A DNA stretch of 64,000 nt from Amphiscolops sp. MND2022 (lineage: Eukaryota). The notes under the pieces were generated by a model. It was not told where the DNA came from. It made no database searches and saw nothing but the letters and a program-made list of their open reading frames with translations. Position 1 is the first letter of the stretch; the number at the start of each line of letters is the position of its first letter. This document shows positions 18,790 through 49,017 of this stretch, piece after piece. Location: the NCBI GenBank assembly GCA_964187785.1, contig OZ076409.1, positions 58,902,001 through 58,966,000 on the forward strand, in the 5' to 3' direction. A program made the translations under genes and the position numbers.

Positions 18790-19301
18790 TTTTAGAGCTC
18801 CGAATCGACGTCCTAGCACATTCAAAGTCCAGACACGTACCACAAACACGCAAAAACGGTTTCTAGCCTTCCTATGACTTCCCACACACCTCCGAGGTTC
18901 AAAAATGTTAATTAGATGGAATGTATTTTTTTGGGTAAAGGCGATGACAATAATAGATCAAGCAGATTATATATCTCCAATTACCTGGAAATTAGTACAA
19001 ATACACTGACACACACCAAGACATCTGAATACAGTCACAACGAGTTTTTGAGGCAGTCCATGCAAAAATTGCATTATTCTTCTGATTAATTTCCACATTC
19101 TGAGGGCAGTTCTTTTGGTGCTGCTACGAAGCTGGACTCTTTCCAGCACGCACAGGCTCCAAACGGGGTTGTTGTGTGTTTTTCGGGGTGTGTCTAGCTG
19201 TTTGTTTTGTGTTCTGTGTGCGTGTCTTTTGTATTCTGTTTGTGTTTGTGTGTTCTTGATATGTCTTCCAGACTGACTTTGAGTACCTGCTAAGTTGGCC
19301 A

Positions 19302-22052: not shown

Positions 22053-23753
22053 TGTCGCAGGCTGCCGCCTGCGATGGCAACATCTATACAATTGACCATA
22101 CGAGGCCAATTGCCCTACCTGGGACACCTCCATTATAAAACTAAAACTTTCAAACATTTAGTATTATTTTGAATATGTAATGTTGATTGATAAATTGTTT
22201 TATTATTTAAAATACATTTGACAGCAAGCTATACTGACAGGCAGAAAGGAAACGTGTTCAAATGTTTGCCTGTCCAGTATAGCTAGCTAAGCCGTCCATG
22301 GTCAATTGGCCAATCGGAGTGCAGTTTATAACAGCCATCTTAATACTCACTACGTAACTGCGCTAGTAGCTATTTAGAATGGACCAATACGGCCAATTAA
22401 CTTTGCCGGCCTTAATGTACTTTGATGCTATACTTGAATGATATTCAGTAACTACAAATAGGACGAAAGCGGCTATGCGACATAGCCGTCCCTATTCACT
22501 GTATTAATTGTCTTGGTGCTATACAGTAAATAAGGCCTATCACGGCCGGTTGACACGATGAACACGCAAGTGCTGTATACTGACCACATGAGATTGGTGT
22601 CACAATTGATTAGTGATGAAAAGACACAAGTAGCCCTCCCCCATGCAATAACAAAACGCATATATTGTTGACATGTAGTGTTGTTTTCGTATTATACTGG
22701 AATCAAATTAGAAAGCCCCAACGGTTACAGGCCGTATAGGGCTTACATGTATGTGCTCAAGCGTAATCTTGTTTTGTGAAACTGAAAGGGAACTGGAAGT
22801 CCCCTTACAGTTACTTACCATATGTATTTTACATGAATTATGTTTACATGTAAAAGTGTTGATATATATTACGTTACACATGAGTGTTATTACCTACTCA
22901 TCATATGGCCTAAACAGGCGCTTTGATCTAACCGCTCACATAGGCCTACGATGATGTCATGTTACTATTTATAGTGCTGACGTATCTATTTTTAGTTCGC
23001 GTGCTATTTTTAGTATCATGACCATGATAATTTTGCCTGTCATGTCCTCTGGGGTATATATACCCTAGTCGGCCTGACAAAGGTTAATTATAGTTTTGCA
23101 GTTATCTGATACATCACGCTCATTTTGGTTAACCTGAAAATAGAAACACTTGTCCACAGGAACAATTCAAATATTTTCTCCTGGAATAACATTTTCAATG
23201 CCTTCTACTAGGAGACAAAAAGCAAAGGCTAGAAAGTCAAGAGAACTAGATATGTTGTCCGATTATGGAAACATGGACATAATGCTAGGCGATGGAAATT
23301 CCAACTCTATAGAAAGAGCGTTGAACAGCCTCATTAACGCCCCAGATAGGCAGCAAGACTTTCAATCTTTTTCAAATCAAAAAAACTCATCTCAGGAAAA
23401 TGAGATTAGAGACATTGATAATAGAAATGAACCTATTGGGGAAAATAGACTATTAGAGTCAATCAATACTTTGTCAGGAGAAATGAATGCTAGAATGTCA
23501 AGGGAAATGGAGAGTATGATGGACTTCATGCAAACTCAGATTAGTAGGGCGATAAACTCTGCCATTAGTGAAAGGATAATACCTGAGATACAAAACATGA
23601 TGAGAAGTTCAACTTTGGTTCAACAAGGCATTGAGCCCAGTTCGTCTCTAAATGAGGATGAGATCGGAAGTATGTGGAAAAATACAAAACCTACAAAGAA
23701 GGACTCTAGGTCCGCTTGTGATTTGAGAGATCATACGGACAGTATTCCTTACA
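22053..23753 (+). repeat. 5' LTR of element A (1701 bp)
   Basis: Direct repeat of 36672-38365 with about 30 differences counted by eye (~98% identity). Confidence 0.97.
23052..23065 (+). promoter_or_regulatory. Probable LTR TATA box within a perfect palindrome GGGTATATATACCC
   Basis: ~135 bp upstream of the gag ATG; the solo LTR has GGGTATAGATACC at the equivalent position. Confidence 0.55.
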
Positions 23754-23767
23754 TGGTGACAGGAGCT
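23754..23767 (+). promoter_or_regulatory. Primer-binding site TGGTGACAGGAGCT (tRNA-Leu-like, inferred)
   Basis: TGG directly after the LTR's CA; identical in element B (53376-53389, -); one mismatch from the TGGTGTCAGGAG tRNA-Leu-type PBS. Confidence 0.8.
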
Positions 23768-24878
23768 AACGAACTCCAACATCCGATTCCTGAATTCCTC
23801 ACAGGACGAATTCACTCTCAGCCCAACCTCCTAAGACAAGAATCCACTCATGATACAACCATGGATACAACCAATAGCAGAGACTGTTCCGGCAGAACAG
23901 CCACAAGACCCTATCAATAGACTAGCAGATGTCCTGGTAAACCTCCAAAACAAACCCCACTCGATGACAATTCGACCAGTCACGACGAACCTCATGACAT
24001 TTGACGGCAAAACAGAGAAATTCGATTCGTTTGAAGATTTGTTTCATACAATGATAAAGATGCAGCCCGCTATGACTGAACAAATGAAAATAAACCATTT
24101 TCATTCCCTGCTCAGAAAAGGAGCACTGCAAACTTTCCGAAATATAAACCCCATAAACCGTCAAACATTAGAGGACGTATTGGTCATGTTCCGCAGAAAG
24201 TACGTCAAACCTGAGTCCCAGGCCACAGCTAAACATAAGTGGCATGGGCTCATCTTTGATCCCAACACGATGAAATAACCAATTTTCTCAAAGAACTCAA
24301 CCAGGGTGCCGAGAAAGCCTTCGGGGAAAACGCCAAGAGCATGACCGATAGCCTCTTATACGCCAAATTACCCCCGAACTCAAGAGATCAGTGAATATGG
24401 CCCGACTGGAAAACGGGACCTACGAGGAGATTGTGGCACATCTGGAAAGAGAACTCGAATTAAACGCATTAGAAGAATCTGACGACCTACCCATTGCTAC
24501 AATGGCTTCGTCGTCCAACAAATCCCGAAATTTACTATCCTATGGCATTGACACCAACAAAAATAACCAATGCTCATACTGCAAGGCTGAGGACCACTTC
24601 TGGAAAAATTGTCCAAAACTGAAAAAGAAGAAAGAATCAGAGGCCAAAGATGGCAAGAAGCCTCAACGCCAAACTTAACCAGAATGCCCCACCTACAGCA
24701 AAACCAATCATCCAGCAGAGAAATGTTGGTGTGGCGCTGGTGCCCATCTTCGTCCAAAAAGAAATAGACAAGACTCCTCCAAAGATACAGAGCCCTCTGA
24801 AGACGAAGGCACTCGCACCAAGAACGAAAAATCCATAACGTCCTCATCAGGCCAATCGAATTCCAAACAGCCTGAATC

Positions 24879-24885
24879 AAAAAAC
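24879..24885 (+). promoter_or_regulatory. -1 ribosomal frameshift slippery site A_AAA_AAC
   Basis: In the gag frame just before TAA; the -1 frame opens into LILPRLQ (pol start). Element B has G_AAA_AAC-TGA at 51708-51702. Confidence 0.75.
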
Positions 24886-27584
24886 TAATTTTGCCACGAC
24901 TCCAAATCTCTGATCAAATGTCGATAGGACAATATGTCGTATCAGACCCAGCTAATATCGCCTACAAGCAGTCACAAAAGGACATTACAGGGACCCCATC
25001 GACTGTCTGTCAGCAGCAGATGTGGAAGCCTGTACTCAAACTCAATACATTATTCACAGTGACCACCCATATCTATATCGACGTAATAACCTCACTAAAG
25101 ACTCAGAAACCCAATTCCGACCCTTACAAATTGTCGAAGGATACAACCCCCAATACTATGACCCTGAGTACGGCAAAGACCCGTACTGGGATGATGATAT
25201 ATACGATAAACACAATTTACAATTCCGGAATGATGACTACCCGCCAACGGACGATGAGGATGACCCCGACATTGTAGACAATATACTGTCCCGGGCACTT
25301 ATTGAACCGTGGCAACCAAATTTTGATGCAATCAAAGATCAGCCACATGCAGAAGAGACACAGGCCACACCTGGCCTTCTCGACGAGACAGCCTTCATAC
25401 ATGTCCTTGTAACTAAAGAAGGAGAACCAGCGTATAAACCCTTATCCACAAACGTCGGACTCAAATACAAAAAACGGATGCTATATTTCCCGATGCACTT
25501 TGGGAAACTAACCATAGACGGCCTCATAGACACTGGAGCTCACTCCAGCGCAATACCGGAAGCAGACCTCAGGAAAATACGCCTATTGGCGCCCCAATCC
25601 ATAGTCAAAGAGGGACCTGCCCCGACGTTTCAAATTATGGTCGCAAACGGACAATTGGAAACCCCAAAGAGTACTGTTGAACTCAAGTTCGAAGTCGGAG
25701 ATATTGAATTCCATGAAATATTTATAGTAATGGAAAAACTGACTGGCCCTATCATAGGACTAATGTTCCTCCAGAGGAATCATCAGTACTGGACAAGGCA
25801 TTCTCATTTTCCCATATTTCTCGATGCAACTCAAAACGGCTGACCATAAATACTCCAACGTACTGGAACCAATACTTAACCCAGACGATATCACAATACC
25901 ACCCAATGACCGTACTTTGGTAGAGATCAAATCCCAAATATACAATGAAAACACGGTCACAGGAGTGTTGCAACCCAGTGATCTCCTCCATGAAAAAGGC
26001 GACATCACATTCTGTGCCGCAATAGTCACATTGACTAGTTGAAACGTCAACGTTCATATCAACAATTTCACAGACCAACCGTACAAGCTTAAAAAGGGAC
26101 TACACATAGCAAACTTTTCCGTACTAACACCGGAACAGATGAAACACGTCAAACCAATTGACCCGGTGTCCACATGGCATCTCCTCAATGAAAACGAAGA
26201 GGATGCGATCTACTATGTCAGTAGTCTACTCAAGGCTAACAGGAACAATGACCAATATGAGCAGTACTGGTTTCCAACGCCAGAAAACCCAGGGGACGAA
26301 GATTCCCATACTCCCATCCAACGACGACTCTTCAAGAATTACGAAACCTCCAAGAAGCTGAACAATTGAACCCTCAGAATGTTGATGAGTCACGCCGCAA
26401 TTTCCTTGGCATTTTCGACTGGAAAGACTCCATGCTGCAGCAACATGGAATCAAAAAGATCGAATCGCTTCTAGTCGAATACCATGACATATTCGCACGA
26501 CACAGATTTGACATTGGACTTAATGAAGAATTCACAGTCAAGCTGACCCCTAAGGACGATTCGCCTGCTTACAGCCAAAGTCTTCCAACTCCAGTCAATT
26601 TAAAAGAGGACATACTCGTCGAAATGGCCCTCTTACACAAATATGGCATAATAACTACACTGCCATTTTCGAAATACGCCAGCCCCATATTTGCACAGAA
26701 AAAACCGAATGGGAAGCTAAGCCTACTAGTCGACCTGAGGAAAATTAATAACTTCATTTCGGATGACTATATAAACAACAATCATCCGGTTAGCACCCTA
26801 ACGGACGCTGCACAACATATGGCAGGAAAGAAACTGTTCTGTAAACTTGACTGTTCACAGGCATACCACTGTCTCCCAATGGCGGACCAAAGGTCCGTTG
26901 AGATGCTTGCGTTCAATTTTGCAAGCCGCACCTTTGCGTACAGATGACTTGCTCAGGGCCTTAGCAGGGCATTATCAGCCTTTTCAAGTTTTATGAGGGA
27001 ATACCTTGATAAAGTTATCAAAGCTGATCAATATGTCGACGACATTGGCATAGCCGCCAACGACGCGGACCATCTCATCAAAAATTTGAAAGCAACCTTT
27101 GAGTGTATTAGACATGCGGGCCTTAAACTAACAATGCACAAATGTCACTTCGGGGCAACGGAAATCGACTTCTTGGGAAGAACAAATACTCCGGAGGGAG
27201 TCAAACCACAAAAGGAGCGAATAACAAACTCCTTAGAAAAAACCAAATTCCCCAAATCTAAAAAGGCTCTGCAAAGATATCTTGGTTTCCTCAATTATTA
27301 CAGGAACTATATCCCAAGATTATCTGAAAAATTAGCTCCCTTCTTCGAACTTCTCAAAAAAGACGAAAAAGTCCTGGTGACTACAGAACTAATACAACAG
27401 TTCAATGAAATCAACCGAGACCTCGACAAATGTAGCCAATTGGCCCTGAAGCAACCTTTGCCAAACAAGCAACTGGTCCTGATGACAGACGCTAGTTTCA
27501 CAGCGGCCGGCTACGCCATACTTACCGAGGACGACCCAAACCAGAAATATTCATCTGTCAAAAAATCATACGCTCCTCAAAAAC

Positions 27585-29667
27585 ATTTGAAAATGGCCTC
27601 AGGGGAATATCGCCGTCAATGGCACAAATATTTGCCACTAGCAGTGCTCAATTATAACACAACTTATCATTCCAGCATTGGTTGCGAACCGAGCAAGGTC
27701 TTTCACGGAAGAATTCCCTACAATGTTCTTGATCATAAACTTGGAAATAATCCTAATAAGGATTTCCTCCCGACGACGGACTTTGCTGAAGAATTACAAC
27801 AGAGAACGAAAGTTCTCATTGACAAAACGAAGCATAACATTAGCATAACATTAGCCAAAATTCAGAACGAAGTCTATTCTGAAGAACTACTCCAGCAAGA
27901 TATCCGATACAAACACTATCTTAACAACTTGGACCGAATAGTCCTTAAAGACGAAATAGTCACACGACAATATTATGATGAAACTGGACGAGTCAAGTAT
28001 CACCAGGTTCTCTTACCAAAACACCTTTTGACAGAATTGTTACAGACCTTACACGGAACGGCGCACAAACACCCTGGCATATCGAAAATGTTACAAGAAA
28101 TCCGACAGAAATACTACTACCCCGGTATAGCAAAACATGTTAAAAAATGGGTAGAAGGATGTGTAACTTGCGCAAAAGATAAACGGGTTCCAAACAACAC
28201 GATAACACCTGAATTGCTTAACTTGCCAAAATGGGACCTTGGACCAGAGGACGCAATGCAAATCGATTTACTCCCAAACTTGCCAACAAGCGGAGGTTAT
28301 CAAACAGTGATGACAGCAATAGATGTCTTTTCAAGATATCTGTTTGCCTACCCGCTAGTTGAGGCAACAGCCTCTAACACGGCAAAGGTCTTAATAGACG
28401 TCATGACAAAGCATTCATATTTACCAACTACGATCATCACCGACAAAGGAACCGCTTTTACATCAAAAATTATTGCAGAGATAACGCAAGTAATGGAAAT
28501 AACCCTAAAAAGTGCGACGACTAAACGCCCACAAACAATTGGCAAACTCGAGAGAACTCACGCCTCATTGAAGACAAATTTGAAAATGGCCTCAGGGGAA
28601 TATCGCCGTCAATGGCACAAATATTTGCCACTAGCAGTGCTCAATTATAACACAACTTATCATTCCAGCATTGGTTGCGAACCGAGCAAGGTCTTTCACG
28701 GAAGAATTCCCTACAATGTTCTTGATCATAAACTTGGAAATAATCCTAATAAGGATTTCCTCCCGACGACGGACTTTGCTGAAGAATTACAACAGAGAAC
28801 GAAAGTTCTCATTGACAAAACGAAGCATAACATTAGCATAACATTAGCCAAAATTCAGAACGAAGACTATTCTGAAGAACTACTCCAGCAAGATATCCGA
28901 TACAAACACTATCTTAACAACTTGGACCGAATAGTCCTTAAAGACGAAATAGTCACACGACAATATTATGATGAAACTGGACGAGTCAAGTATCACCAGG
29001 TTCTCTTACCAAAACACCTTTTGACAGAATTGTTACAGGCCTTACACGGAACGGCGCACAAACACCCTGGCATATCGAAAATGTTACAAGAAATCCGACA
29101 GAAATACTACTACCCCGGTATAGCAAAACATGTTAAAAAATGGGTAGAAGGATGTGTAACTTGCGCAAAAGATAAACGGGTTCCAAACAACACGATAACA
29201 CCTGAATTGCTTAACTTGCCAAAATGGGACCTTGGACCAGAGGACGCAATGCAAATCGATTTACTCCCAAACTTGCCAACAAGCGGAGGTTATCAAACAG
29301 TGATGACAGCAATAGATGTCTTTTCAAGATATCTGTTTGCCTACCCGCTAGTTGAGGCAACAGCCTCTAACACGGCAAAGGTCCTTATAGACGTCATGAC
29401 AAAGCATTCATATTTACCAACTACGATCATCACCGACAAAGGAACCGCTTTTACATCAAAAATTATTGCAGAGATAACGCAAGTAATGGAAATAACCCTA
29501 AAAAGTGCGACGACTAAACACCCACAAACAATTGGCAAACTCGAGAGAACTCACGCCTCATTGAAGACAAATTTGAAAATGGCCTCAGGGGAATATCGCC
29601 GTCAATGGCACAAATATTTGCCACTAGCAGTGCTCAATTATAACACAACTTATCATTCCAGCATTGG
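27585..29667 (+). repeat. 993-bp tandem duplication (2.1 copies) of integrase sequence
   Basis: ATTTGAAAATGGCC recurs at 27585, 28578 and 29571; 4 substitutions seen between the two full copies. Confidence 0.95.
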
Positions 29668-30815
29668 AGTCCAGCATTGGAGTCCAGCATTGGAGTTATT
29701 GCAGTCATACCTGAAATATAAGGAGTACTACGACCGGAAAGCCAAAGCAGCTCCTCTCAGTGAACAAGAAATTTGTTTTATCCTACAGCCTAAAGCGGAT
29801 AATCAAGGATCAAAAATACCATTTAGAGAATACCGCTGGATCGGTCCTTATCGAATTGAAAAGGTATTACCTAACGACAATTATATTGTCCGCCGGTTAA
29901 ATACGAATAAAACGCAGATATTACACCGAATCCGCCTGAAAAAATTTGTTCCAAACACGCCTTTAGAGGACAAATATGCCAAAGAGAAATTGCAACCAGA
30001 TGATGAAATAATCATACCGCAAGATGATTTATACACCATCTCATGGGAAGCAGATTTTGACTACCATGTCTTCGAGCCGAGACGAGACGATAATACGGAT
30101 GAAGAATTACAAACACCAGACAGCGATGCTGGTGTCACGACTAGTGACTACGTCATTTATGACAACGCTGATGACAACGCGGTAAGGCCGGGGAAGGCCA
30201 CCAGCCGAGACGGCACAATTACACGAGACGCAAATGACGTCACCGGATTGAATGAACGAACCAAAATGAATGAAAATGAAGCGGGACCGAGTACGGCTGC
30301 TAGCCGAGACGCACCTATAGTGCATGACGAACATGACGTTAACGAGAATGCTGCGCGAGATGAACAAAGCAGCGAGACAGGAAGGCCGAGAACGGCCACT
30401 AGCCGAAATAATCACAATGGTGGCAATACACCTCCTACTTCAGAAAAGAACGTGAATGACGTCACAAATGAATTAGAAGGCGAGGAAAGCTCTCTTAGTG
30501 AGGGGGATGATATTACCGTGCCCGGAATATCGAATGGAAAAACAAATGAAAAAACTGATGAAAACTTTAGCCCTAGAGGGGGGAAATATAATCTTCGACC
30601 TAACCCCAACCCCAACTATACTGATGAATACAGATACTAGCCAGAAATGTTAAATTGTGTCCCCATTTATTTTACTGCCCGAGAAGGCATGTTTTTTCAT
30701 TGGGACCTTTCTGACTTCCTTTAAAACAGACTAACTGCATGAACATACAAACAGAAAAATACAAAACAAATATACAAATTGAAAGTCTAAGATAACAAAT
30801 GTACTCTATGTACAT

Positions 30816-33800
30816 TTAGTCTTTAGATGAGCCTTGACGCAGCTCCTTCACCGTCTTGGAAAACTCGCTAGGAGGAATATCGCCGAAATAAGCCAATTCC
30901 TGGGCCTTACCAGCAGCCCAATTGATCTTGCGCACAGCAGAGCTGGTAACAGAGGACGAACGAGACGTACTAGCAGCCACAGCAGTTGAAATTCCTTTCA
31001 GATTTTGTAAGCCGTAGTTAAAGTTTTTAGGAACTTGGCTCGACCATAAACGTCCACATGAGACCAAGGATCTCCGGCAAACTGGTATGAATTAAACTGA
31101 CCAGACAATTCTTTGTATGCAGCCAAAGCGGACTCAGTAGTGCAAACGGCTATCGCATCAGGGCAGTTGGCCAGATAAGACTGTGCAGGTAAAATCACAG
31201 CGGAAAGACGACAATGCGAACTAGATGTATCTACATCCTGGAGCTTGACAGCTGGAAGGTCATGATGGTCCTCAGTGATGCAGAGACAACAGAGCCTGAA
31301 TAAATGAAAGAGCCTTGAACGACTCTGGAAAGCGGCCATGGGCACGAGGAAGTCCAGCATATCTGGAATTGTGCCAGGGGAGTTCTTCATAGACGAGTAA
31401 GTACTGCGTAGGTAGTCCACAAACTCGAAATATTCATCTCGACACTCGCTCTTGGAAGCTTCGCCTACCCAGCCTCGAACTCGGAAACTATTGTACAGGG
31501 AATCGAAACAGAAAGTAACCTGATTGAGCGGCAAAGAGAGCAATACGTGAGGGTCGAAACAACCCATCCCATGCACAATGTTAGTGGTGAAATGCACGTT
31601 GCGCAACAGAGACCTCAATAAGGACACGATGTAACCTCGGGCCTCAATTCCAAAATTCTCCCTCTCCTTGGCAACGAGGGCATCTAGACTTGGTTGGCCC
31701 GGCTTCTTATCATCTTGATGTCGTTTCATTTTGGCTCGACAAGCTTGGTCCAAGTCGGTCTCCAATTTCAACCGGCTCAGGAAGTCTCGGCTGGATAACT
31801 GTTTCAAGTCATCGGGAAACAATTGTAGGAGCTCAGTCCATTCGGCATCATTGGGAGTACACTTCGGGAGAATCGCCCTGTGACACAAGCGACGAATAAA
31901 GCGGCAGTACTGTCCGTAGACAAACAAAGTTGCATCTCGTCGTCCTGCCAGGCTGCGTTCAAAGCACTTAGTTTCTAAACAAATACAGACTCAAAAGCGT
32001 GAAAACGAGGCACCATACCAAAAGCGTGCTAGACATGACCTAGAGGCCGAGTTCGATAGTTGGAAACGGATGGAAAGTAGAACTAGACAAACATAGGAAA
32101 AAAACTAACAATCTCGAACCAAACAGGAGAAGAACTCAAGCTTGACGGTGAAGAAGTCGTCTTGGATTATCACCCATTCTAGACTCTGTATCTGAAAAGG
32201 GAAATTATACTTCCAAAGGAGTAAGACGCAAGTTATACTGGCCTAAGACAATACTGGGAGATTGAGACCATCCTAACACCGAAGCGGAATGAGAGATTAA
32301 AGACATACAAACCTTGTTCTTGACACCTTGCAAGACTTGTGTTGGGGCCGTCTTCGTCATGAAGTCAAGGATGTCCTTCCAGTGTTTGATGAGTTCAATG
32401 CACAGAGCTGGAATTTTCCTCAACTGAATGTCGCATGCAGCCGAAGCCTACAAAATGGGGACGAAATAACTTGGAAAGACCCGAATTACGTTTACCACAA
32501 AAGGAAAATTCAACTACAAAACTGCCGACGAGGAAATAAAAAACCAAAACAGTGGATTAAAAATAGATAAAAACCTTGCAAAGCTCCAGACACTGAAGGG
32601 CCCATGGCTGGCTCTGGCACCCACGCAGGAAGACAACCAGATACTTGAGTTGGGTGAACATGTCGATTCGGCCGAAGACATGCTTAGTCTGAAGTACATT
32701 TGGCTGCATGAGTTCCGGCAGAGAGATCACTTCAAATCGGAATGGATATTGAAAATACGTGCGAGATGGCAGACAAATAACAATCTGGATAAGTCTCCCC
32801 TTGGTGGTGACGATAAAGTTAAACTCTTGCCAGTAAGTCATTCTTCCAGAACCGGATCGATAGGCAACGGTAAACGCCCTGTGTGGTAAATTCAAGCCAC
32901 TGGAGACGACATGTCCTGAGATGTCGGAAAGGCCGCGCATGAAGATGTGGTGGAAGATATTCTGAAAAAGAGAATATAGGCTCAGTCGAAGTAATCCCAC
33001 AACAAATTGCCATCAGGATTCTAGGAAAAGAAATACTTACGGTAAGTGTGGCGGACCCCCAGTCGAAAGAAGAAAACAGGGCTTGATGGTTGGTGAATTG
33101 CCCGACTTTTGTCCAGAGACTTTGGAGTAGTGAGAAACTTCCGTCCCTGGGAATGAAGGTGCCAATCAGGGAAATTAGAGTGCTAGTCCTCAAGTCATCA
33201 TGGTTAGTGATACCCCCAATGCTGGCCATATAATCTTCAAAAAACGGATACCGATCTCCTGCTTCGATCAGAGGGACATCCATGAATAACGGTTTCTCTT
33301 TCTCTAATTCGACGGGAGTAAGGACCCAGCCGTCTTTGCCTCTGACTTGGTGAGTCACATTGCCGGTGATTTCGTCGGTTTCCTGCAAGTGCACATACCT
33401 CCACTTCTGGTCCTTCCTCAAATGGCCCTCTGTCCTGTAGTGTCGCAAAATCTCCCTGGCGCCCTTGGAATATATTGACACGTTCGTTTTGCCCAGCATA
33501 CAATAAAATTTGAATTTGTTGTGTACGGGATCGATCGAGTACACTGGATGCCTTTAAAGTAAGCGTCTTCCATGACTTTTCCGGGCTTACTGAGCAGTTT
33601 CCTTCTTTTCCGCGGAGGACTGGGAGTAGCTACATCGGATTCTCGTGGCCGTCTAAGGACGGATAATGGCTGGTGGTCAGTGCTGCTGTACCCACTTCCG
33701 GAAGTGGGTGTCGTGACCTCAGCGCGAGACGTGCTGGGAGTGAGCCTAAAAGGCGTTTCAGGAAGTTTTGTTTTAGGACCAGTCTCACTTACACCATCTG

Positions 33801-34740
33801 TTCCAGATATGGATCCCACCTGATACGGGTCCTCGTCAGTGTTGAACGCCCCGTTCGTATAGCCATCACTGGTAATTCCTCCGAAGCTGCTTTCGTCACC
33901 TGAACTGATGGAAGGTCGACGCGCAGGCGTAGGGCAACGCCGGGGCATACTTTTCTTCTTGTCTTGTGAAGTCCCACTCGTGGCATGTAACAAGAGGGAC
34001 TTCATCATGTGATAAGAAGATATCACAGATTCATCGGCAACTGTGCGAAGGATAGCGTGGACCTGATCTTCATTGAAGGCAATGGTCGTATGACCGGCTG
34101 GCAATTGGACGGGGGTGGCTGCTGTGAAATACTTCCTAATGACCGATCTTCCTTTGACTGATAGTTGCCTATCGGAATTGGCAACCCTAACGCGATATTG
34201 CTCCTGCTCTGTGTCGCTGTGGCCAGACTCGGCCCGGAATTCTCCCTCGAACTCGGGGAAAGCAGAAGGATCCCACGCCATGGAGGACGTAACGGGAGGA
34301 AATGCATCTACACCAGAGCTATCTAAAAGTTCTTCAGCATCGCTAGTATCTCCATAAAGGGGAGCAGCTCCGGATTGCGAAGTCGACTCGGGCTCGATGG
34401 CAGGTCCAGTTTTCTCCTCGCTCACGTCCTGACTCACGACGATTGGGTCAGAGACAGAAACTTTCAAAATTTCAGAGAAGATTGTCGACGTAATTGTGGC
34501 GGGCATAGGTACCGGTATGTCACTGATCTCAGATGCACGTGTTGGGAATTCCATACATGTGGCGATTCTTTCAATAAAAGCAGAGACGCTCTCCTCTGTG
34601 GACGGACTAGAAAAGGACGTTTGGGACAAAGGCCGGACAGGGTCAACTTGTGCCGCGTTACCTTGCTGCTCTACTTCAATAGATCCGTTTCCATCACCAC
34701 TGGGAACAGTGGATTTTGGCATTTCCTTCTCAGAAGACAT
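30816..34740 (-). pseudogene. Antisense spliced accessory gene of element A: hAT-transposase-derived protein with a BED-like finger (~1150 aa; lesions in this copy)
   Basis: Exons 34740-33041, 32961-32575, 32447-32313, 32191-32110 and 31974-30816, joined by GT-AG introns; homologous along its length to 44835-48728 in element B. Confidence 0.8.
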
Positions 34741-35920
34741 ATCTAAACAGAAGGATATAAAGTTTTGCGGACAACTTCCTGAATATGAGTCCATGAATAA
34801 CCGCTATTAAAACCTTCCGGAAGTGAAAAGAAAAAATTCCAAATTCTAAACTTGTTTAGTGAAAATGGACAGGAAGTCAACGAACGAGAGGAAGAGCCTT
34901 GATCAAGCTTATTTCCGTTCAAAAATTAAAAAGACCAAATAGCTTACCTGCGGATGATGGACGTGTAAGGACTGAAGGCAGTTGCTCACAAATGCAAGGG
35001 TACGTGTTGCACCTGTACGCTCGGAACAGCAACAGAGGACCAGTAAGGCCGGATGAATTGCAGGAGTGAAAACTTGGAAGATGGATTGGAGAAGATTCCA
35101 AGAAGGAAAGTGACGGTAGTGGCGTCGGGACAGAAGCGTAAATAGTGACGGAAAGAAAATAAATTGTTCGCTGATGAACTGATTTAAAATGATGAAGACT
35201 AGAAGACTGACTAAAGACCAAGTAAACAATGGATAAATACGAATATGGAAATGTAAAAATTATTGAATTGGAAGAAGATGAAAGTGATTGCAAGAGCAAA
35301 GTTGGAGTTCGTGGCAAACTGGATTTGATGTCATATGTTTTTACAATTATGAGGATTATTTTTTGGATGGAACCTGCCAGAGATATCCACGTTATTCTTA
35401 TTTCGAAACATGTATTTCCATTATTTCATTATTTATTTATTTTGGTTATTTTATAATTTCCTTATTTGGATTATTATTATTAATTCCGCCATTTTGAAAT
35501 GAAGGCTGTAAAGGCGATTCATATTGGCTATCGCGGCGACGCGCCGCGTGCGGCCTTAAAACTTGATTACCCACTCTTGAAATTCTCAAGTGGATATCAA
35601 CAGCAGATAAACACTCAACGGCGTCATTGATGGCTCTTTGCCGCATCAGGCAAACGACTGAAGTGATGATGTAAACAAGGTGGTTTATTGGAAACATCAA
35701 AGGATGTTTAGGAGAATTTATCAATGAAACGATCACCGGGAGAGATGAAACCCCGGGAAAAATCATGAGACTTGAAAATATTTCAGACGAAGTCAGCAAG
35801 GAGAAGTTATCATTCTCTCTTCTGAAGCTTTCAATAACAGTTGGTTAGCGGAACTTGAAAATTCCAAAACTCATTCCAATTCTTATAAAAATTGCTAAGA
35901 AATTCATAAAAGCAAGATTC

Positions 35921-36757
35921 ATGGCCGCCTGATACCCTGAAGACTTCCGAGGCGCGGCGCCCGGCGGTGTAGACATAATCTGCCTATCCAGTGACGAAGA
36001 GGAGGAAATGGGTGACCAGAGCATGAATTCAGTGCTAGACCTCCAATTGTCATCGGATGACGGAGAGATGGATGACGAAATCATGATGATGGCCCATAGT
36101 GTCGAGATGCAACTATCATCGCCTATCCCAATACCTGGTCCTTCAACAGCTCTGCGAATTAGAGATGAAGCCCCCCAATATAACTTGCCAAGATACGGGA
36201 CCTCTGGGACGAGCTTTGCAGCAAGGCCTACTCTCGACCAATCCTTCTTCTCACTAGGAAAAGGAAATGGCCCGATACGGCGAGATGACCGAGTCCGCAG
36301 CAATCACCCTATCAAGCTGTGTAGGGAAATCATTCCCATGGTGGATATTCCTATGTCGCCCCCACCTGAAGAGAGAGGACCAATTTACGATTCCTATTCG
36401 GTGGACGGTCAGAGTAAAATCTCCCAACAGTCTTTGGACACAGTTGCAAACCACTTCCAAGGAATAGAAATTGAGACGAACAGCCCAATGGGGAATTACT
36501 CAGACTGTGTGATATGTGGAAAATCTACCTTACAAATTCAGAGCGAAGCAGTCACGGATTATTTGCGCAAGACGGCCATTTTGGGAGAATCGGCAGATCA
36601 ACTAGAAGCGCGCAAAAGAGCCTTTATGGAAGGAATGCAGGTGGGCACTTTCCTATTACTACCAGGGGGAGTGTCGCAGGCTGCCGCCTGCGATGGCAAC
36701 ATCTATACAATTGACCATACGAGGCCAATTGCTCTACCTGGGACACTTCCATTATAA
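35921..36757 (+). CDS. Accessory ORF3 of element A (acidic SIM-like N-terminus, CxxC), ending inside the 3' LTR
   Basis: Open from 36008 to 36757; a homologous in-frame ATG at 35921 is followed by a premature TGA at 35930; homologue in element B (43631-42900, -). Confidence 0.75.
36664..36671 (+). promoter_or_regulatory. Polypurine tract AGGGGGAG
   Basis: Immediately precedes the TG of the 3' LTR; element B has the related CCAGGGGTAT. Confidence 0.75.
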
Positions 36758-38365
36758 AACTAAAACTTTCAAACATTTAGTATTATTTTGAATATGTAAA
36801 GTTGATTGATGAATTGTTTTATTATTTAAAATACATTTGACAGCAAGCTATACTGACAGGCAGAAAGGAAACGTGTTCAAATGTTTGCCTGTCCAGTATA
36901 GCTAGCTAAGCCGTCCATGGTCAATTGGCCAATCAGAGTGCAGTTTATAACAGCCATCTTATTACTCATTACGTAACTGCGCTAGTAGCTATTTAGAATG
37001 GACCAATACGGCCAATTAACTTTGCCGGCCTTAATGTACTTTGATGCTATACTTGAATGATATTCAGTAACTACAAATAGGACGAAAGCGGCTATGCGAC
37101 ATAGCCGTCCCTATTCACTGTATTAATTGTCTAGGTGCTATACAGTAAATAAGGCCTATCACGGCCGGTTGACACGATGAACACTCAAGTGCTGTTTACT
37201 GACCACATGAGATTGGTGTCACAATTGATTAGTGATGAAAAGACACAAGTAGCCCTCCCCCATCCAATAACAAAACGCATATATTGTTGACATGTAGTGG
37301 TGTTTTTCGTATTATACTGGGATCAAATTAGAAAGCCCCAACGGTTACAGGCCGTATAGGGCTTACATGTATGTGCTCAAGCGTAATGTTGTTTTGTGAA
37401 ACTGAAAGGGAACTGGAAGTCCCCTTACAGTTACTTACCATATGTATTTTACATGAATTATGTTTACATGTAAAAGTGTTGATATATATAACGTTACACA
37501 TGAGTGTTATTACCTACTCGTCATATGGCCTAAACAGGCGCTTTGATCTAACCGCTCACATAGGCCTACGATGATGTCATGTTACTATTTATAGTGCTGA
37601 CGTATCTATTGTTAGTTCGCGTGCTGTTTTTAGTATCATGACCATGATAATTTTGCCTGTCATGTCCTCTGGGGTATATATACCCTAGTCGGCCTGACAA
37701 AGGTTAATCATAGTTTTGCAGTTATCTGATACATCACGCTCATTTTGGTTAACCTGAAAATAGAAACACTTGTCCACAGGAACAATTCAAATATTTTCTC
37801 CTGGAATAACATTTTCAATGCCTTCTACTATGAGACAAAAAGCAAAGGCTAGAAAGTCAAGAGAGCTAGATATGTTGTCCGATTATGGAAACATGGACAT
37901 AATGCTAGGCGATGGAAATTCCAACTCTATAGAAAGAGAGTTGAACAGCCTCATTAACGCCCCAGATAGGCAGCAAGACTTTCAATCTTTTTCAAAACTC
38001 ATCTCAGGAAAATGAGATTAGAGACATTGATAATAGAAATGAACCTATTGGGGAAAATAGACTATTAGAGTCAATCAATATTTTGTCAGGAGAAATGAAT
38101 GCTAGAATGTCAAGGGAAATGGAGAGTATGATGGACTTCATGCAAACTCAGATTAGTAGGGCGATAAACTCTGCCATTAGTGAAAGGATAATACCTGAGA
38201 TACAAAACATGATGGGAAGTTCAACTTTGGTTCAACAAGGCATTGGGCCCAGTTCGTCTCTAAATGAGGATGAGATCGGAAATATGTGGAAAAATACAAA
38301 ACTTACAAAGAAGGACTCTAGGTCCGCTTGTGATTTGAGAGATCATACGGACACTATTCCTTACA
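36672..38365 (+). repeat. 3' LTR of element A (1694 bp)
   Basis: Direct repeat of 22053-23753; ends TTACA, followed by the TSD GATAC. Confidence 0.97.
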
Positions 38366-38370
38366 GATAC

Positions 38371-39054
38371 CTTCAACTCTCTGAGGCTGACTCAATTTAT
38401 CCGAACTATATTAGCGTTCAAACCTCATTCAGTACAAGTTTCCCGATTAGAATTCAAACGTTTCCAAATCGGCTTCGAATGCCTACTACAAGGAAGCAGA
38501 AAAGCAAGGCGAGAAAATCTGAAGAAGCAGAAATGCTGTCCGACTTAGAGAATATTGACATAAGGCTTGGTAGGAACCACATTCAAAGACAGGATAATGA
38601 ATTCGGAAATTTGGCCAGACGGCCTGAAAGTCCTACTTATGATGTTTTAGTATATCATAATAACAATTCTCACTCTAACTCAGGTGAGAATGAAATCAGG
38701 AGACTTACCGGAAATGGTCATAATTCAGGAGAAATTGATTCTAGTGGTGAGATCAATAGACTGTCAGGAGAACTAAACCGAAGAATCACTCAAAGATGAA
38801 TGGACTAATCAACAGTGTTAGTTTGCAAATTCAGAAGGCTATAAGTGAGGCCTTTAATGAGCAAGTGTTGCCACCAATTCAAGCCTCTCTTAGGTCTGGT
38901 TCCGGAAAAATGCCCCAAAAGGGATGGAACGTTGGGATCGAGAGACCGGAATATAGAACCGGAGGATTTTTCAACCGCAAGGTCAGAAGTAGTTCACGGG
39001 ATGAGTTTCCCCGAAATCCAGTTTTTGATGACGACGAGGAGGAATCTCATTACA
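38371..39054 (+). mobile_element. Solo LTR, 3' part (carries a gag N-terminus homologue from ATG 38479)
   Basis: MPTTRKQKSKARKSEEAEMLSD; ends TTACA followed by CCATG (39055-39059), which matches 21148-21152. Confidence 0.85.
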
Positions 39055-39147
39055 CCATGTTAATTCTATGCATGGGCAGCCCAACCTGGCTTTTTCTACA
39101 TTTAATCCCTGAACACCTAAAAGTGGGGAAAACCTTAGCAAATGTAT

Positions 39148-41792: not shown

Positions 41793-42905
41793 TGTAAGGC
41801 CTACTATCTCTAGTGACTCTTAGATCACAAGCAGACCGTGAGACCTTCTTTGTAGTTTTAGTTTTGAACCCATTGTGCCTCTCAGTATTCTCCTGACTAT
41901 TGAGGGACGAACCGGCTTCAGTGTCCCGATTTCCTGAGGATGACCTTGAGCTGACTATATTTTGAATCTCTGGGATTACTCTATCAGCTATTGCAGTGCT
42001 AATCGCCCTTTTTAGTTGGATGTGCATCATGGACATTATTGAGTCCATCTCCTGAGAGAGTCTCATATTAAACTCACTATTAAAAGTTTCCATGGTCTCC
42101 TGAAATCTATCTTGCCCGGGAATTATGTTTTCGCGGACATAGTGTTCAGAACCATTTTCATGGAAATCCTTCTCCCTAGGACGTGAGTTAGATTCATTGT
42201 CACAATGACCTTCTGAATTTCCAATTACATTTGAAAAATCACGCTCAAATGTGTTGATATTGTCATTTCCAAGAATAACGTCCTTATTTTCAAAATCGGA
42301 CATCATGTCCATTTCCCTTGACTTTCTAGCTCTCGCTTTCTGGCGTAAGAGACTGTTGCAAAAGGTAAGAATTTAGTTATTCTGTAGGCTTGCAAATCAG
42401 GATTTTCGTTAACAAGTAACATTTATTATGGTTAACAAACAATTTTCCGTAAGTAGTAACAAAATAAGATTGTCTCCGGGACTACGTGTCCCAGCTATAT
42501 ATGTATATGATTCTGCATGACTAGAGGAGCAGGTCATGATGCTTTGTTTAACTCTTAGTTATTCTAAAAATAGATATTAGGACTGCGTGTCCTTGCTCTA
42601 GTCCGGTGACGCAATTCTAATTAGAGAAACTGCACTACGTAATATTCTATTTTTAGCAACAGGGCAGCAGCAAATTACCGCGTAGCTTTGAAGGTCTTTC
42701 GGCTTGAGTATGCGACATCATCAGTTAATATACAACTAGCTTTATTAATATTTCACTGCATGAAATACATGTGGAGAGAAATAACAATTTGCCATTGAGG
42801 CTATATTATAAATAATTCAAAGCAACGTGTCAATTCCTTAAAGGACATAAATTTTTCATGGTCTGAGTAACTTGAGGGGGAAAGGGACTATGGGGGCCTG
42901 CGACA
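41793..42905 (-). repeat. 3' LTR of element B (internal deletion near its 5' end)
   Basis: Direct repeat of ~53390-54377. Confidence 0.9.
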
Positions 42906-43631
42906 ATACCCCTGGTATAAGTAGAAACGTCCCCACCGACATCCCGTCTAGGAAAGGTCAGGAAATCTCTAGCTCAGTCAGTGTTTCTCCAAGGACTGTT
43001 GTCTTACTCAAGTAGTTGTTTACAGCGTCTGACTGGATTTGTGACACTGATTTTCGGCAAACCACACAGTCTGAGTAGTTCACAAACATTGAGTCCTATG
43101 ACACAGCAATATCTCTGAGGTGATTGGAGCTGGAACCCACTGTGACTGTCTCGTCGGAATTTGAACAGCTAGGCGCGTTCGCCCTGTAATCTGGGCCTCT
43201 GTCAGCAGCGGGAGGAGACAATGGGGTGTCCAGTTGAGGCACTAGATTACGGCAAACGCTAATGGGGTGATTGTTCCTCACCCTGTCGTCGCCAGCTAAC
43301 GGGCCGTTTCCATTTCCAAGGTTGAAATACCTTTGGCGAAATGTGGGGAACGGCGGTCGGCTTGGCCTCGGTGTCGGGCACCTCTTTTGCGAGTCAGTGG
43401 ACCCAGCGGCTGGTATCGGTATAAAGTCGGCCAACTGCTTTCCACGCATCTCCCGATTAGTTGTATTTCCTCCGTTTCTTCGTCCGATGAAGAGACCAGA
43501 GCGTCCACTGAGCCAGAACTGATGCAGTCAATGTGGTCAGGTTCGTCGCTGGACAGATATTTAATGGCCGGTTTCCTTTGGGACTGGGCCGCACCAATAA
43601 AATCCATGGAGAAAGTTTCTTGCAAAGCCAT
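42900..43631 (-). pseudogene. ORF3 of element B
   Basis: MALQETFSMDFIGAA, YLSSDE, LGNGNGPLAGDDRVRNNHPI, SDCVVCRKS..IQSDAV..YL, GMSVGTFLLIPG; frameshifted. Confidence 0.8.
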
Positions 43632-44834
43632 GGTGTATCTCTTTTTGAATATCTTTCTCGCAATTTTGAAGGGAAGTTCGAATATTTCCAAGTTTTTTGA
43701 GTTTATAAGAAGCAGCTGATTAGCATAGTTGAAATCAGAAGAATGGTGATTTCTTTCTCTGTCGACCCGCGGGATTTTTATCCTACTTCGGATTTCCTTT
43801 CCCGGGTTTTCTGCTTCGTTTTCTGAATGATTTATCAAAACCAAATTTTTCCCCGGCAACATTCTATCAACTAGCCGTTTAGGCCACTTTGAATTTACCG
43901 ACAGCGGCATTGTTGACTCTCATAACTTCTACTAACACTCTTAGTTCTGGAGCATTGCGATAATTGTTTATTAACACTCACTTTCCACTTGAGAGTTTCA
44001 AGTGGATGTAGATATGGCTGAAGGTAGCCAATGAATTTGTAGGGAAATATCTTTATTCAGAAAATGGCGATCCAAGGCCGTAAATCCATATAAGGAATTA
44101 AATAAAATGGCCTTGGAAAATAAAATAAAATAATAATGGTGAAATGCTAAAATAATAGTGGTTTAATAGAATGGTTGCATAAAGTAACCAAGTTTTCGAA
44201 ATAAGTAAAATACTGTAGAAAACACTGGCAGACTCTATCCACATATCATTGTAAACCCCAAAACATTGTAACTTTGACATCAAACTGTATAGGCACGTAT
44301 ATTGTCACCTTGCTGATTCACCTTTCAATTCCTTCACATTTAATTCTTTCCAGTTTGTTCCTTTCTTCGTATTATCCATTATTTAACCGTCATTTGTATT
44401 TAGTCTTTAGTCTTTGAGTTACTCTTTGTAATTTATTTGTATTTATTCGAAGTCTTTATTTTTATAATCTTCCTTCGGACTCCCTGTCCAGTCGTCACAA
44501 CACCTGGATATCCTGGACCCTCCAGGATTGTTGACATCCCGGTCTCACTCATTCTCAACCCTTTGAATTGGGCTGTTACCAGATTGTTCAGCAGTATTGC
44601 CCCGCTTTGTAGTTCTAAGCAGACACCAACATTGTCTTTCGAGTAAGTTGTTTCCCTTTTAAGTTGAACTGAACTAGTCTTTATCAGGGCTCTATTCATG
44701 TTCGTGCACTTCCTGTCCAATAGCACAAGTTTTCACAAGTGTTCAATTTTATCTATTTCCGGAAGATTTTCAAATGCGGTAAATGGATTCTAATTCAGGA
44801 AGGTTTCCGCTTGAATTTTCGTCTTTCTATTTAG

Positions 44835-47800
44835 ACAAGTCGTCTGAATACCGAGCATCAGAGGAAACAACTGGACACGCTGATGATGTCTTTGAAGAGG
44901 AGACAAAGGAGGCTCAACAGCATACATAATGATCCAGAGAAGGCCGCTGAGCCAGAAGTTTTGTCCACCACTCAGCAAGAGGCCATACCAACCCCAAGTC
45001 CTTCCACTGATGGGAGCATATCGGGTTATATAGGGAAAACTCTCAAAGTTTTGGCTGATCCAGAAGTTGATCCCAAAGTGTCATTCTTGCCTCCTACCCC
45101 CACTGCGCTAGAAGCGAAACAGGAAGAGAGAACTCTAAAGGAATCGTAGTCCGTTAGATTGCCTCGCAGTTCAGAGGGTCCTCAAAGTGACTTTGAAGAA
45201 GCAGCACCATAGAACATGCAAGTTGAACTACTCAGCGAATCCGGACACTCTGTCCAAAAGGTGGACTTTTTCCAAACTGACACTTGTGAAGTGGAAAAGC
45301 TGTTTGACAGTTCTGGCGCCGAGGTGTTTAATGACAGGCAAACCCTCATTCCACTTGACCTAGGGACCACCACAACTTCGGAAATTACTTGCAATGATGA
45401 TCCCAGATCCTCAGGAGGCGTACCTCCAGTTACTTTACCCAAAGCTTTAAATTCCGATCGACCACTATCTGCCCCTGGACGTACACTCCTCAAGGAGTTT
45501 TCCACTGAAACGTCGCCAACCATCCTTCCCATCGGTTATTCCACAGTCGCCTTCAATGAGCGGCAGATCCACACTGTCGTACAAGTCATCTCTGACGAGT
45601 TAGTTACTACCTCTATGCACGTAATGAAGACCATGTTAGATGAAGCCATGAGAGTTGGAGCGCGCTCCTAACAGAACAAACTATGGCAAGGCCGAAAGAA
45701 AGTTCAATGCTTTCACGGTCAATCCGATAGTTCTGTAGGCAATGGAGATCAAAGTGAAGCACCGCAGGAGGCTACACAAGTGAAGCACTTAGTCCAATGA
45801 CGATTTTGTATCTTTGGAGCCAGGGAGAACCACAAGGCCAAAATTTGGAGACCCTTGCGGTTGTAGAATCCCTAGCACTTCCGCCGGAACACAACCAGGC
45901 AGCCTTCTGTTGCAGTTGTCCCGAGTCCCGGATATAGTGTGGGTGATTATGAACAACTTGCCATCCTCCGGTCACCAGCTACTCCACAATCGCCGATCCC
46001 CAGTCCACCTTGACGACTCCCAGGACGTGCAGGCAAAGTCATGAAGGAGGCTTATTTCAAAGGCATTTAAAGGACGGGGACCTTTATATCTGGCCCTTTG
46101 GACCCGGAGCACAACAAACACAAGTTTTATTGTCAAATTTACAAGACGAATGTTTCCATGTACATTGCTCGACAAAATGTCAGGCACTTCCAAGCTGAGT
46201 CTCATTTCCGCAAGGATCAACGCTGGAGGTATGAACACCTCAAGAAAAAAGACAAGGCGACTGATCTGGTCACAAATGAAGTCAGAGGAAAGAACGGGCA
46301 GATATTAACACCGTTAGAACTTGAGAGAGAGAAACTTTACTTTGAATCGGCTCCTTTAGTCGAGACTGGCTGTGATTATCCGTTTTTTGACGACTACATG
46401 GCAGGACCAGGAACCTTCGTCAATTCTAATGAAGCTCGACTATGTGTCCGAATTTCGCAGGTGGGACATTTCACTACCAGTTGTGGAGATTGAAACCTGT
46501 TGCAGACCTTGTGGTCTCAGATCGGAATATTCACCAATCATCAAACTTTATTTCCCCGTTCGATTGGGGAGGAGCCACGCTAATGGTAAGTAACTTTGTA
46601 CTACCTAACTTGGTGCCTTCGGTGTCTCCTAAACAAGTGTGTAGTCTCCATTTTCTCTGTTTCGTTTCCGACTGTTATCTTTCATCCTATATTCCTTTGC
46701 GGCCTAGCAGACATTGCCGATCAAGTCAGCACCACCGCATGCTATTCTTTGGAGATTGAAACGAAGGGAAGTTACAGTAATCTCTCTGTCCGATTCTGGA
46801 AAGCAGACTTAGTGTGCGTTATGAAGCTCCTCCGTTACGGGACTTCTGACCCCACAATGGGTGCATTGGTCGCCATTTCCCGGTTGTTGTCCGTGCTGCC
46901 CAGATCGTGAGCTTATCGGGGTGTCCTTCTGAACTTGTGCCAGTCCTGGAACGATCATCCCTTTTCACCAAGGGTATCCAATACCCTCTCCGATTTGATG
47001 CCTTCTCGCACGACAGATTGATGCATCAGCGTTGGGGTAGCGTCTTCGGTGCAATCAACTTCCATTCTCAGTTGAAATTCCTCGTAAACTTCCTGATGGG
47101 TGTCGTGGCCAGACGTGGGCTCCGCTGATGCCAGAGTTTGTTAAGGTGAGATTTCTTAACCTTCAGTCAACCTGTCTTCTCGTACTGGCTCTCACCCTGG
47201 CTCTCTGTTGGTTCTCACAAGCCACACACTCGAGGTCGTTGCTACACCCGCAGTACGTTCCGAGCTTCTGGCCAATTGGACAAGTATTCAAGAGTACCTC
47301 ACCAAGATAGCCCCTCCTCAGATCAATCAAGGAATGAAAGGCAGGCCACAGAGTCTGGAATGGGACATAATCCACGATGAGTTCTTCGTCCGCAAGCTGG
47401 AATTCTTTGGGCGCATCGTCCGAGACTGTAAGTATGGAAATTTTTTCGAGTGAGGGTTTCCTGTCCATCATGTATATGACGTCATATAGGGATGAAGGGT
47501 TGTTTATTAACTTTAGCAGTCTTGCTATTCACACAGACACACCAACCCGGTCCATTGAGTTGTGACTTATGTTCACTGTTTAGACATCAAGAGCTTCGAG
47601 ATCAGTTTGGCCCAACGTAAAGATGCAGGCATCTACACTTACCGAGAACTGCATCAGTTCGCCCGGAAATTGAGTTCTCGCAGTCTCCTCCCCAAACATG
47701 TGCCCGAAGCAACAAGCTGGAAGTCCTAGGAGAGTTACAAGGACAGGTATTAGGGCAATTATCGAGCAGAGACATTCTGCACCGACTGAAAATGAAGCAG

Positions 47801-48728
47801 ATTTAACAGGGGCTTGTCAGACCCGCGTCTAGAAAAAAAAACAACGGGAAGAAGGGACCTCAAGTCTAATTTGGTGCAGCTGTGGAGGATGTCCGAGAGG
47901 AATTTGCATCCAAGGCCAGAGGTTACATCGTTTTTGTTAGAGGCTCTTCTCGCGGACATTAGTTTCAATGTCGACATCGTCCGGGGCATGAGTTCCTTTG
48001 ATCCTTATGTCCTCCACAATCTTCATTTAGAGCAAGCCACATTCTGTTTTTCTGCGCTCTAAGAGTCTTTCAGCCTTCGAGGCTGGTTAGTCAATTTGCC
48101 CAAAACTGAAGCCCGAGATGAAAATATCGAATTTCTGGATGATTTCAGAAAGGCACACTCCAACATGCAAAACAGTCTGGGGGTGTTTACTGACATGGTC
48201 CGGTTTTTAGTTGCAATGCCTGAATTGAGGATGCGGGAGCATTTATTCTACATCTTGCGGTTGAGTTGTCTTTGTTTGACCGGCAGCTCACCAGAACTTC
48301 CTTCAGTCAAGTTCTAAAAAGTAGATTGCGGTGATCCGCGAAGCCGACTTTTCGATGTAACATTGCCCTCACAGTCCGACCTCGTCAGTGTACCTGATGC
48401 CGTTTCCATATGCACTAGCGAAGCTTGCTTGGGAACATATAGAGACCTCGAATCTAATTTTAGTAGTGGAAACGTGACCGGAGACCCTTGGGCACATGTT
48501 GACAGTTTTGGGAAGGCCGACTTTCAAAAGGTTTTGACTTCGGTCTGCAGGACATTGGATACAAAGGGAGGCAAGGATGTTCACCCTGGCAATTGTTCAA
48601 CCCCTAGCGTTACCGGAAAGCAGAAGCAGTCCCCAGTCAAAGGCAAGAAAGTTACTTTTGGATCAAGTGCAACTCCTGGAGTCGAGAAGTCTGTCCGGTG
48701 GTCTACCCCAGGATCATCCAAACTTTAA
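44835..48728 (+). pseudogene. Antisense hAT-derived accessory gene of element B
   Basis: LPIGYSTVAFNERQIH, DPEHNKHKFYCQIYKTNVS, FDWGGATL, GDPWAHVD and GSSKL* all match element A; donors at 46586, 47146 and 47428. Confidence 0.8.
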
Positions 48729-49017
48729 ATGTACATAAGATGCATTTACATCATAACTCTGTACCATAGTTTGTCTATTTGCCTTGTTTATTATCTTCAT
48801 CTAGTGACTGTTTTATAGTTAGCCATAGTGTCCAAATGTTGTAAATTTTCATTATATAACGGTTGTGATCCAGCTGTGGCTTTTTATTAATTGCCACCCA
48901 GTCTGTTTGTCGTTATATAAATTTATATCGAAAAATTGAAGTCAGAAGAGTCCCAAGTAAAGATACATGTCCTTTGAGGACAGATAGCCAAAAAGGGACT
49001 TGCAATTAAATTTTCTG

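Follow-up and report, generated by a model that had tools for sequence, protein, structure and literature searches.

The 64-kb window (the whole stretch of DNA that was analysed) contains a 16.3-kb LTR retrotransposon, element A (22053-38365, + strand), at the 3' end of which lies the gene considered here, ORF3 (35921..36757, +). The element is bounded by a 5' LTR of 1701 bp (22053..23753, +) and a 3' LTR of 1694 bp (36672..38365, +), which run from TG to CA and are 97.8% identical. Together with a target-site duplication (GATAC), a PBS-like sequence that starts with TGG, TGGTGACAGGAGC, directly 3' of the 5' LTR, and a polypurine tract, AGGGGGAG, consisting of an 8-nt purine run (36664..36671, +), these are the features of an LTR retrotransposon. 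The gag-pol region (23198..30640, +) is frameshifted and encodes DUF1759/zinc knuckle, aspartyl protease, reverse transcriptase, RNase H and integrase domains, and the order of the Pfam matches in pol, PR-RT-RNase H-IN, is that of Ty3/gypsy elements, to which we assign element A. A 993-bp tandem repeat (27585-29667, 99.5% identical) duplicates the integrase region in frame beside a shortened RNase H and is either a genuine rearrangement or an assembly artefact. The gag frame begins approximately 555 nt inside the LTR and continues in frame through the PBS (23198-23753 and 37818-38365 in A, +; 53390-53850 in element B, -), and the 3' LTR of A holds, besides a TATA-like site, the first ~185 codons of gag. 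With gag starting in the LTR and the last 27 codons of ORF3 lying at the opposite end of it, coding sequence occupies both LTR ends, and a gag N-terminal piece is found in every solo LTR.

Element A is inserted inside a solo LTR, C (21153..39054, +; target-site duplication CCATG), which belongs to a more distant subfamily. The gag N-terminal piece of this solo LTR (38480-39054) is in the same frame as that of A's 3' LTR, and a chimeric open frame of 284 codons (37945-38799) joins the two. Element B (41793..55548, -; target-site duplication CTTAC/CTTTC) represents a related subfamily; its 5' LTR (55548-53390) carries an ORF3 tail, and only the first 10 nt of its 3' LTR are left, the remainder having been deleted. 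A further repeat is inserted in B's 5' LTR (54380-55020), with relatives at about 19300-19730, 39140-39190 and 56100-56510. Elsewhere in the window there are a separate reverse transcriptase fragment (8002-8748, +; RVT_1, E 2.5e-20) and interleaved direct repeats (59809-62248) with spacings of approximately 1.06 and 1.36 kb.

ORF3 is a real gene, yet both of its copies in the window are broken. Copy A is interrupted at codon 4 by an in-frame TGA (35930-35932), after which the frame is open for 274 aa (35933-36757), and in copy B (42896..43631, -) there are a frameshift and two stops, and the tail has gone with the deletion of the 3' LTR. Both defects were overlooked in the original prediction, which treated 35921-36757 as a single open reading frame. 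With the TGA at codon 4 and the next in-frame ATG at 36008, directly past the first of two motifs resembling SUMO-interacting motifs (SIMs), the only possible product of copy A would be without that first SIM. The two motifs quoted from A were found, at 35969..36007 (VDIICLSSDEEEE, +) and 36032..36067 (VLDLQLSSDDGE, +), and the blocks LG.GNGP...NHPI..CR, P.SPP, SDCV.C.KS and GM.VGTFLL.PG are present in both A and B. The end of ORF3 also lies where it had been placed, as the frame of A crosses the purine run, which forms part of a P-G-G-V, and continues for 27 sense codons and a stop within the 3' LTR (from 36672). Two statements about the tail hold only in part: the B tail given as SQAAACDGN...PGTIPL exists but sits in B's 5' LTR (at 55548) rather than at its ORF3 copy, and VPGTLP is present in the decayed tail of the solo LTR (21153) but out of frame with SQA, whose own frame stops at the sixth codon.

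The interval between pol and ORF3 holds an antisense gene, in several pieces (30783..34803, -; counterpart in B at 44783-48761, +), which is conserved between A and B under purifying selection (omega 0.21) and has a C2H2-like motif. Its C-terminal piece is presumably reminiscent of hAT-type transposase ends. No Pfam family was found for this gene, and one of its pieces (P0401) retrieved no PDB match and, though this is weak evidence, no longer relatives; comparing the ORF3 profile to the antisense N-terminal ORF gave no homology. The two genes diverge from a shared 1.1-kb spacer, in which an inverted repeat upstream of ORF3 (35576..35594, +, in A; 44002-43984, -, in B) is identical at 18 of 19 nt between the two elements and occurs nowhere else in the window. 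A and B also share ATAAACA and CCCGGGAAA words. The inverted repeat and the shared words are candidate promoter elements, and the arrangement suggests that the antisense gene and ORF3 may share one promoter.

Searches with ORF3 retrieved many relatives: 79 clusters at 90% identity by protein search, 114 hits by profile, and 278 clusters when grouped at 50% identity (E<=0.001). Clusters contain up to 163 members, many of them listed at full length, and many relatives are intact and 260-285 aa long, with near-constant length down to ~30% identity; their shared tail suggests that they too overlap an LTR. No examined relative, whether from ENA or, in one instance, from JGI/IMG, carries a name, such that the description of ORF3 as an orphan is correct with respect to named families but not with respect to its hundreds of unnamed relatives. 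Divergent relatives P0217, P0224, P0229, P0057 and P0058, one of which is the JGI/IMG member, are on short contigs (0.7-3.8 kb), and most others are on long contigs. The family may be present in more than one host.

Across 126 codons compared between the ORF3 copies of A and B, the differences number 58, 36 and 79 at codon positions 1, 2 and 3. Omega is 0.12 in the middle block, 0.15 in the block containing the cysteines and helices and ~0.16 overall, values that are rough given a dS near saturation (pS 0.70-0.79) and a single pair in which both copies are broken. The five other frames of the same region gave 0.38-2.05, and the ORF3 values are comparable to those of pol (0.06-0.13) and the antisense gene. 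Neutral evolution, named in the original prediction as an outcome that would tell against it, is not what this codon-position bias and omega indicate. These comparisons mark ORF3 as an accessory gene that selection has conserved in a family of Ty3/gypsy retrotransposons.

At the C-terminal end, however, conservation is partly imposed by DNA signals, a point that had been overlooked. In 115 of 116 rows of the alignment a V or L precedes SQ, which would be expected if the codon at that position has to end in the TG that starts the LTR. Purine-only codons could specify the two residues upstream of it in 92 of 117 and 105 of 116 rows, in line with an overlap with the polypurine tract. SQAAACD is encoded on an inverted repeat in both A and B (z -1.9 and -2.4). 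This hairpin-forming repeat lies at the very start of the LTR (36672-36697, 22053-22078 and, on the minus strand, 55548-55523) and is absent in solo LTR C. As the polypurine tract, the LTR-start TG and the hairpin partly dictate PGGVSQAAACD, its conservation is weak evidence for protein function. In contrast, A and B encode the terminal PGT(L/I)PL with synonymous differences, suggesting that selection acts on the protein even within the LTR.

The N-terminal part of ORF3 is where the SIM-type motifs occur. In the SIM consensus, a [VIL][VIL]x[VIL] core lies in a disordered region and has acidic residues or phosphosites next to it (PMC9371903, in the part of the paper available to us), and the first motif of copy A corresponds to it in sequence, with the core IICL followed by two serines and an acidic run (IICL-SSDEEEE). 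The second motif, VLDLQLSSD, is less conserved and varies more across the family, and the IKYLSSD of B, which had been offered as SIM-like, fails the forward pattern. A loose forward pattern was found within the first 70 aa of 41 of the 45 near-full-length representatives (a redundant set, left from 116 hits after 71 fragments or filtered sequences were removed) compared to 5.0% of shuffles. Among 30 non-redundant members (<70% identity) reduced from 164 full-length-like proteins, a strict [VIL][VIL]x[VIL] core with serine and acidic residues was present in forward orientation in 15 and in either orientation in 19 (18 without one match that lies in a predicted helix), compared to 7.1% of shuffles. 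Neither strict orientation was found in the other 11, some of which keep xYLSSD alone. Across the remaining ORFs of A that were scanned, nine in number and 3,301 aa in total, there was no forward match and one reverse match.

The distribution of the motif was also followed on a tree of 32 rows built from the C-terminal part of the protein, with the N-terminus left out. The forward SIM is present in 17 of the 32 rows, on deep branches, and is missing from a well-supported clade of six rows (100/99), four of which have a reversed SDIEV[IL] motif; this looks like compensation, although it is a single event. Lack of conservation of the motifs in the family was a further outcome that would have spoken against the original prediction, and SIM-type motifs are instead far commoner than in shuffled sequences. 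In the structural models, residues 1-50 have pLDDT values of 40-49, which a shallow alignment may also have lowered, and no secondary structure, such that the motifs presumably lie in a disordered region, as is typical of SIMs (PMC9371903, same part). From these sequence patterns we consider it probable that ORF3 binds SUMO through its N-terminal motifs, while a motif that combines hydrophobic and acidic residues could equally be an acidic activation motif.

The full-length AlphaFold model is mostly unstructured (mean pLDDT 48.5), and disorder is predicted throughout, except for a small domain in which CxxCG is followed by a two-helix hairpin (36506..36643, +; pLDDT 79-97 with 117 rows). Four cysteines are conserved (68 of 75, 106 of 112, 110 of 116 and 108 of 114 rows), the fourth lying within the LTR hairpin, where its conservation is possibly partly DNA-driven, along with one histidine (78 of 104). 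This set of residues would suit a single zinc site, though not a RING: four conserved cysteines and one or two histidines are spread over ~130 residues, and the Pfam hits of 117 members include no RING. A candidate proline-directed phospho-motif, [DE][ST]PxSP (36344..36361, +), is present in 58 of 82 rows, with copy A deviating at the first S/T. In 20 of 21 members the protein has a net charge between -15 and -35, and the N-terminal 70 aa have one of approximately -7 to -20, likewise in 20 of 21. No classical nuclear localization signal was found (only RKR/RRR within a helix), and no DNA-binding domain is evident. The statement that ORF3 is not Env is borne out, as copy A has no TM-like stretch (best 19-residue hydropathy 1.11), 19 of 21 members stay below 1.6 over 19 residues, and the models contain no long hydrophobic helix; as far as composition goes, the N-termini are acidic and lack the hydrophobic core of a signal peptide.

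Database searches did not connect ORF3 to any described family. Pfam holds no ORF3 family, with scattered sub-threshold hits only among 28 and 117 members; PHROGs gave matches for 0 of 30 members and NCBIfam for 1 of 30, a stray. ESM Atlas yielded no usable match for the whole protein or its C-terminal part, and Foldseek with the C-terminal model gave no match at E<=0.001 in the PDB or viral libraries. The best fold score of that model, VIA Z 5.3, is to generic helical hairpins, from which novelty of the fold does not follow. Related loci were absent from the viral and metagenome contigs searched. An 11-kb contig (L001), filed as a giant-virus MAG, carries a SUMO-like gene (239-511, +), which is either a viral gene or eukaryotic contamination.

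The genes nef of HIV, bel of foamy viruses and sag of MMTV each occupy the region between pol and the 3' LTR, cross the polypurine tract and end in U3. ORF3 has the same layout, and, with this placement taken as general background, the earlier description of it as a selected, non-Env 3' accessory gene positioned like nef or bel stands. It differs in that its element is a Ty3/gypsy retrotransposon without env, in its tandem SIM-type motifs and in having no sequence or fold match to those proteins; for Nef and Bel1 (Tas), matches were lacking in Pfam, PDB sequences and viral folds, searches that a remote kinship might escape. The CERV protein of the C. elegans element Cer1 is, according to the available portion of PMC10309623, likewise an accessory protein other than Env from a Ty3/gypsy element of an animal, and it has a Cys cluster and an SP phospho-site. 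CERV is a 517-aa protein spliced from an exon region shared with gag, with three folded domains and a role in RNA export (same portion of PMC10309623), whereas ORF3 is ~275 aa, acidic, predicted to be mostly disordered, located at the 3' end and equipped with SIM motifs. In plants, Grande, RIRE2 and Retand carry conserved extra sense or antisense ORFs between pol and the 3' LTR, as here, and the additional ORF of Grande has its own promoter (PMC7264820, accessible part); the proteins are different, and in the present element there is a divergent gene pair whose sense member enters the LTR. The giant planarian gypsy element Burro also has extra coding capacity, thought to meddle with ubiquitin-type systems of the host, but its extra domains are recognisable and mostly within a polyprotein of ~5,000 aa (PMC6431247, in part), while ORF3 stands as a small gene by itself and belongs to no known family. 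At the level of sequence, ORF3 is thus placed like known accessory genes without detectable kinship to any of them. Overall, the earlier observation is confirmed in part and its interpretation supported in part.

The reading that we prefer, while holding it tentatively, is that the ORF3 protein acts in the nucleus as an adaptor that binds SUMO and protects the element against SUMO-dependent silencing. ORF3 would be expressed from a separate transcript, starting near the conserved upstream inverted repeat or produced by splicing, and the protein would be nuclear. Phosphorylation of the Ser-Ser-acidic run would strengthen SUMO binding, as in PML and Daxx, whose phospho-SIMs have the same core, serines and acidic residues in a disordered setting (PMC9371903, available part), a likeness at the level of the motif only. 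The CxxC and distal cysteines would bind zinc, with the domain providing self-association or contact with a second partner; the Cys domain and the antisense protein are both candidates for bringing ORF3 to the element. At the element's chromatin it would compete with SIM-bearing silencing effectors for SUMOylated scaffolds, and the LTR would remain active. In piRNA silencing, SIM-bearing effectors are recruited by SUMO scaffolds (PMC8490990, available part), and HSV-1 ICP0 provides a viral precedent for SIM-like sequences directed against SUMO-based restriction (PMC7303953, available part). Given these scaffolds and this precedent, interference at that step would be the simplest benefit to a high-copy element. 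Like ORF3, ICP0 and cellular STUbLs combine several SIM-like sequences with a Cys-containing domain (PMC7303953, same part); without a RING, ORF3 cannot be such a ubiquitin ligase by itself and would work as a decoy or adaptor. If ORF3 does bind SUMO, we lean slightly toward the anti-silencing direction. Against the SUMO and anti-silencing reading we count the 11 of 30 members without a strict SIM, the lack of a classical nuclear localization signal and of an evident DNA-binding domain, and the strong net acidity. SUMO-SIM contacts also more often draw in repressors, which counts against an anti-silencing role specifically.

The same SIM evidence applies if the motifs instead serve a nuclear step of replication, tethering the cDNA/integrase complex to SUMO-rich chromatin or repair sites while [DE][ST]PxSP would act in cell-cycle phospho-docking. 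In 37 of the 58 rows that have this motif, position -3 is hydrophobic, in agreement with the loose pattern of TOPBP1 BRCT2, [FILMV]-x-x-[ST]-P (PMC6175577, part of text), but that pattern is very permissive, the remaining 21 rows fail it, and nothing links ORF3 to the particle or to integrase; we consider this explanation unlikely, though the strongest of the others. Somewhat less probable in our judgement is a trans-activator resembling Tas/Bel1, in which the acidic-hydrophobic N-terminus would be an activation domain rather than a SUMO binder and the Cys domain would be directed at the LTR or at an internal promoter, either by itself or via the antisense protein. The 3' position and the acidic N-terminal 70 aa are in keeping with it, and the conserved inverted repeat upstream could serve as a response element, whereas activation domains need less specificity than is implied by the precise SIM spacing with Ser-Ser and by the reversed motif of the clade that lacks the forward one, and the Cys domain is not basic. 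An element protein that recruits SUMOylated co-repressors through its SIMs, curbing copy number or restricting cell type, would agree with the building of silencing complexes by SUMO-SIM contacts (PMC8490990, as above); retention of the gene in high-copy, full-length subfamilies is easier to understand for a gene that aids spread, and self-limitation of this kind seems quite improbable.

CERV offers another model, a Rev-like factor that exports or processes unspliced genomic RNA, since CERV is a nuclear, phospho-regulated accessory protein that has a candidate zinc finger of the C4 type (PMC10309623, available portion) and ORF3 has four conserved cysteines and an SP motif. Nevertheless, ORF3 is strongly acidic, has no Arg-rich stretch, is about half CERV's length and is not joined to gag; CERV-type H, M and G domains were not encountered, with one small helical domain predicted against CERV's three, and the word SUMO does not occur in the available portion of PMC10309623. 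An RNA-export role is accordingly one that we regard as improbable. A degenerate histone H2B mimic in the C-terminal domain was raised by a 76-row profile, which matched H2B (8qz0_H, E 0.099) across the C-terminal half of the protein, LLLPG included. The match was gone with a more diverse profile of 117 rows, LLPGG overlaps the polypurine tract, a helix break is predicted where the H2B helix is continuous, and H2B is not among the 50 fold matches listed; the candidate was dropped and is very unlikely. Least probable by far is a non-coding or neutral frame held open by DNA signals. Both window copies are broken and the residues at the border of polypurine tract and LTR are dictated by DNA, but the codon-position bias and low omega of the A/B comparison, the intact, constant-length ORFs of divergent relatives and the synonymous changes in PGT(L/I)PL already largely refute it.

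A SIM-bearing retrotransposon accessory protein was not found in the literature as covered by titles and abstracts. The portions of the acoel literature that were available, including PMC9911081, describe LTR content but not the ORF3 gene, and neither "anti-silencing" nor "VANC" occurs in the accessible part of PMC13269885. The family of A and B may already be present in published repeat libraries or databases. We regard it as possible, though on balance doubtful, that this is an antagonist of SUMO silencing encoded by an animal LTR retrotransposon family itself. Such a protein would join a phospho-SIM decoy to a new helical domain that binds zinc; it would have persisted through a deep radiation, acting alongside a partner gene on the opposite strand under a shared bidirectional promoter, and would have helped the family to a very high copy number.

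SUMO-SIM contacts are a core step of piRNA-guided transposon silencing (PMC8490990) and a layer attacked by viruses (PMC7303953), according to the available parts of both sources. Should the SUMO reading prove false, ORF3 would still define a new family of accessory proteins, with a small domain that matched nothing in the searches. If instead ORF3 binds SUMO and lifts silencing, it would represent a direct, testable transposon counter-defence in a host that is probably an animal, and hundreds of natural variants would be at hand, among them a clade in which the orientation of the SIM has apparently been swapped.
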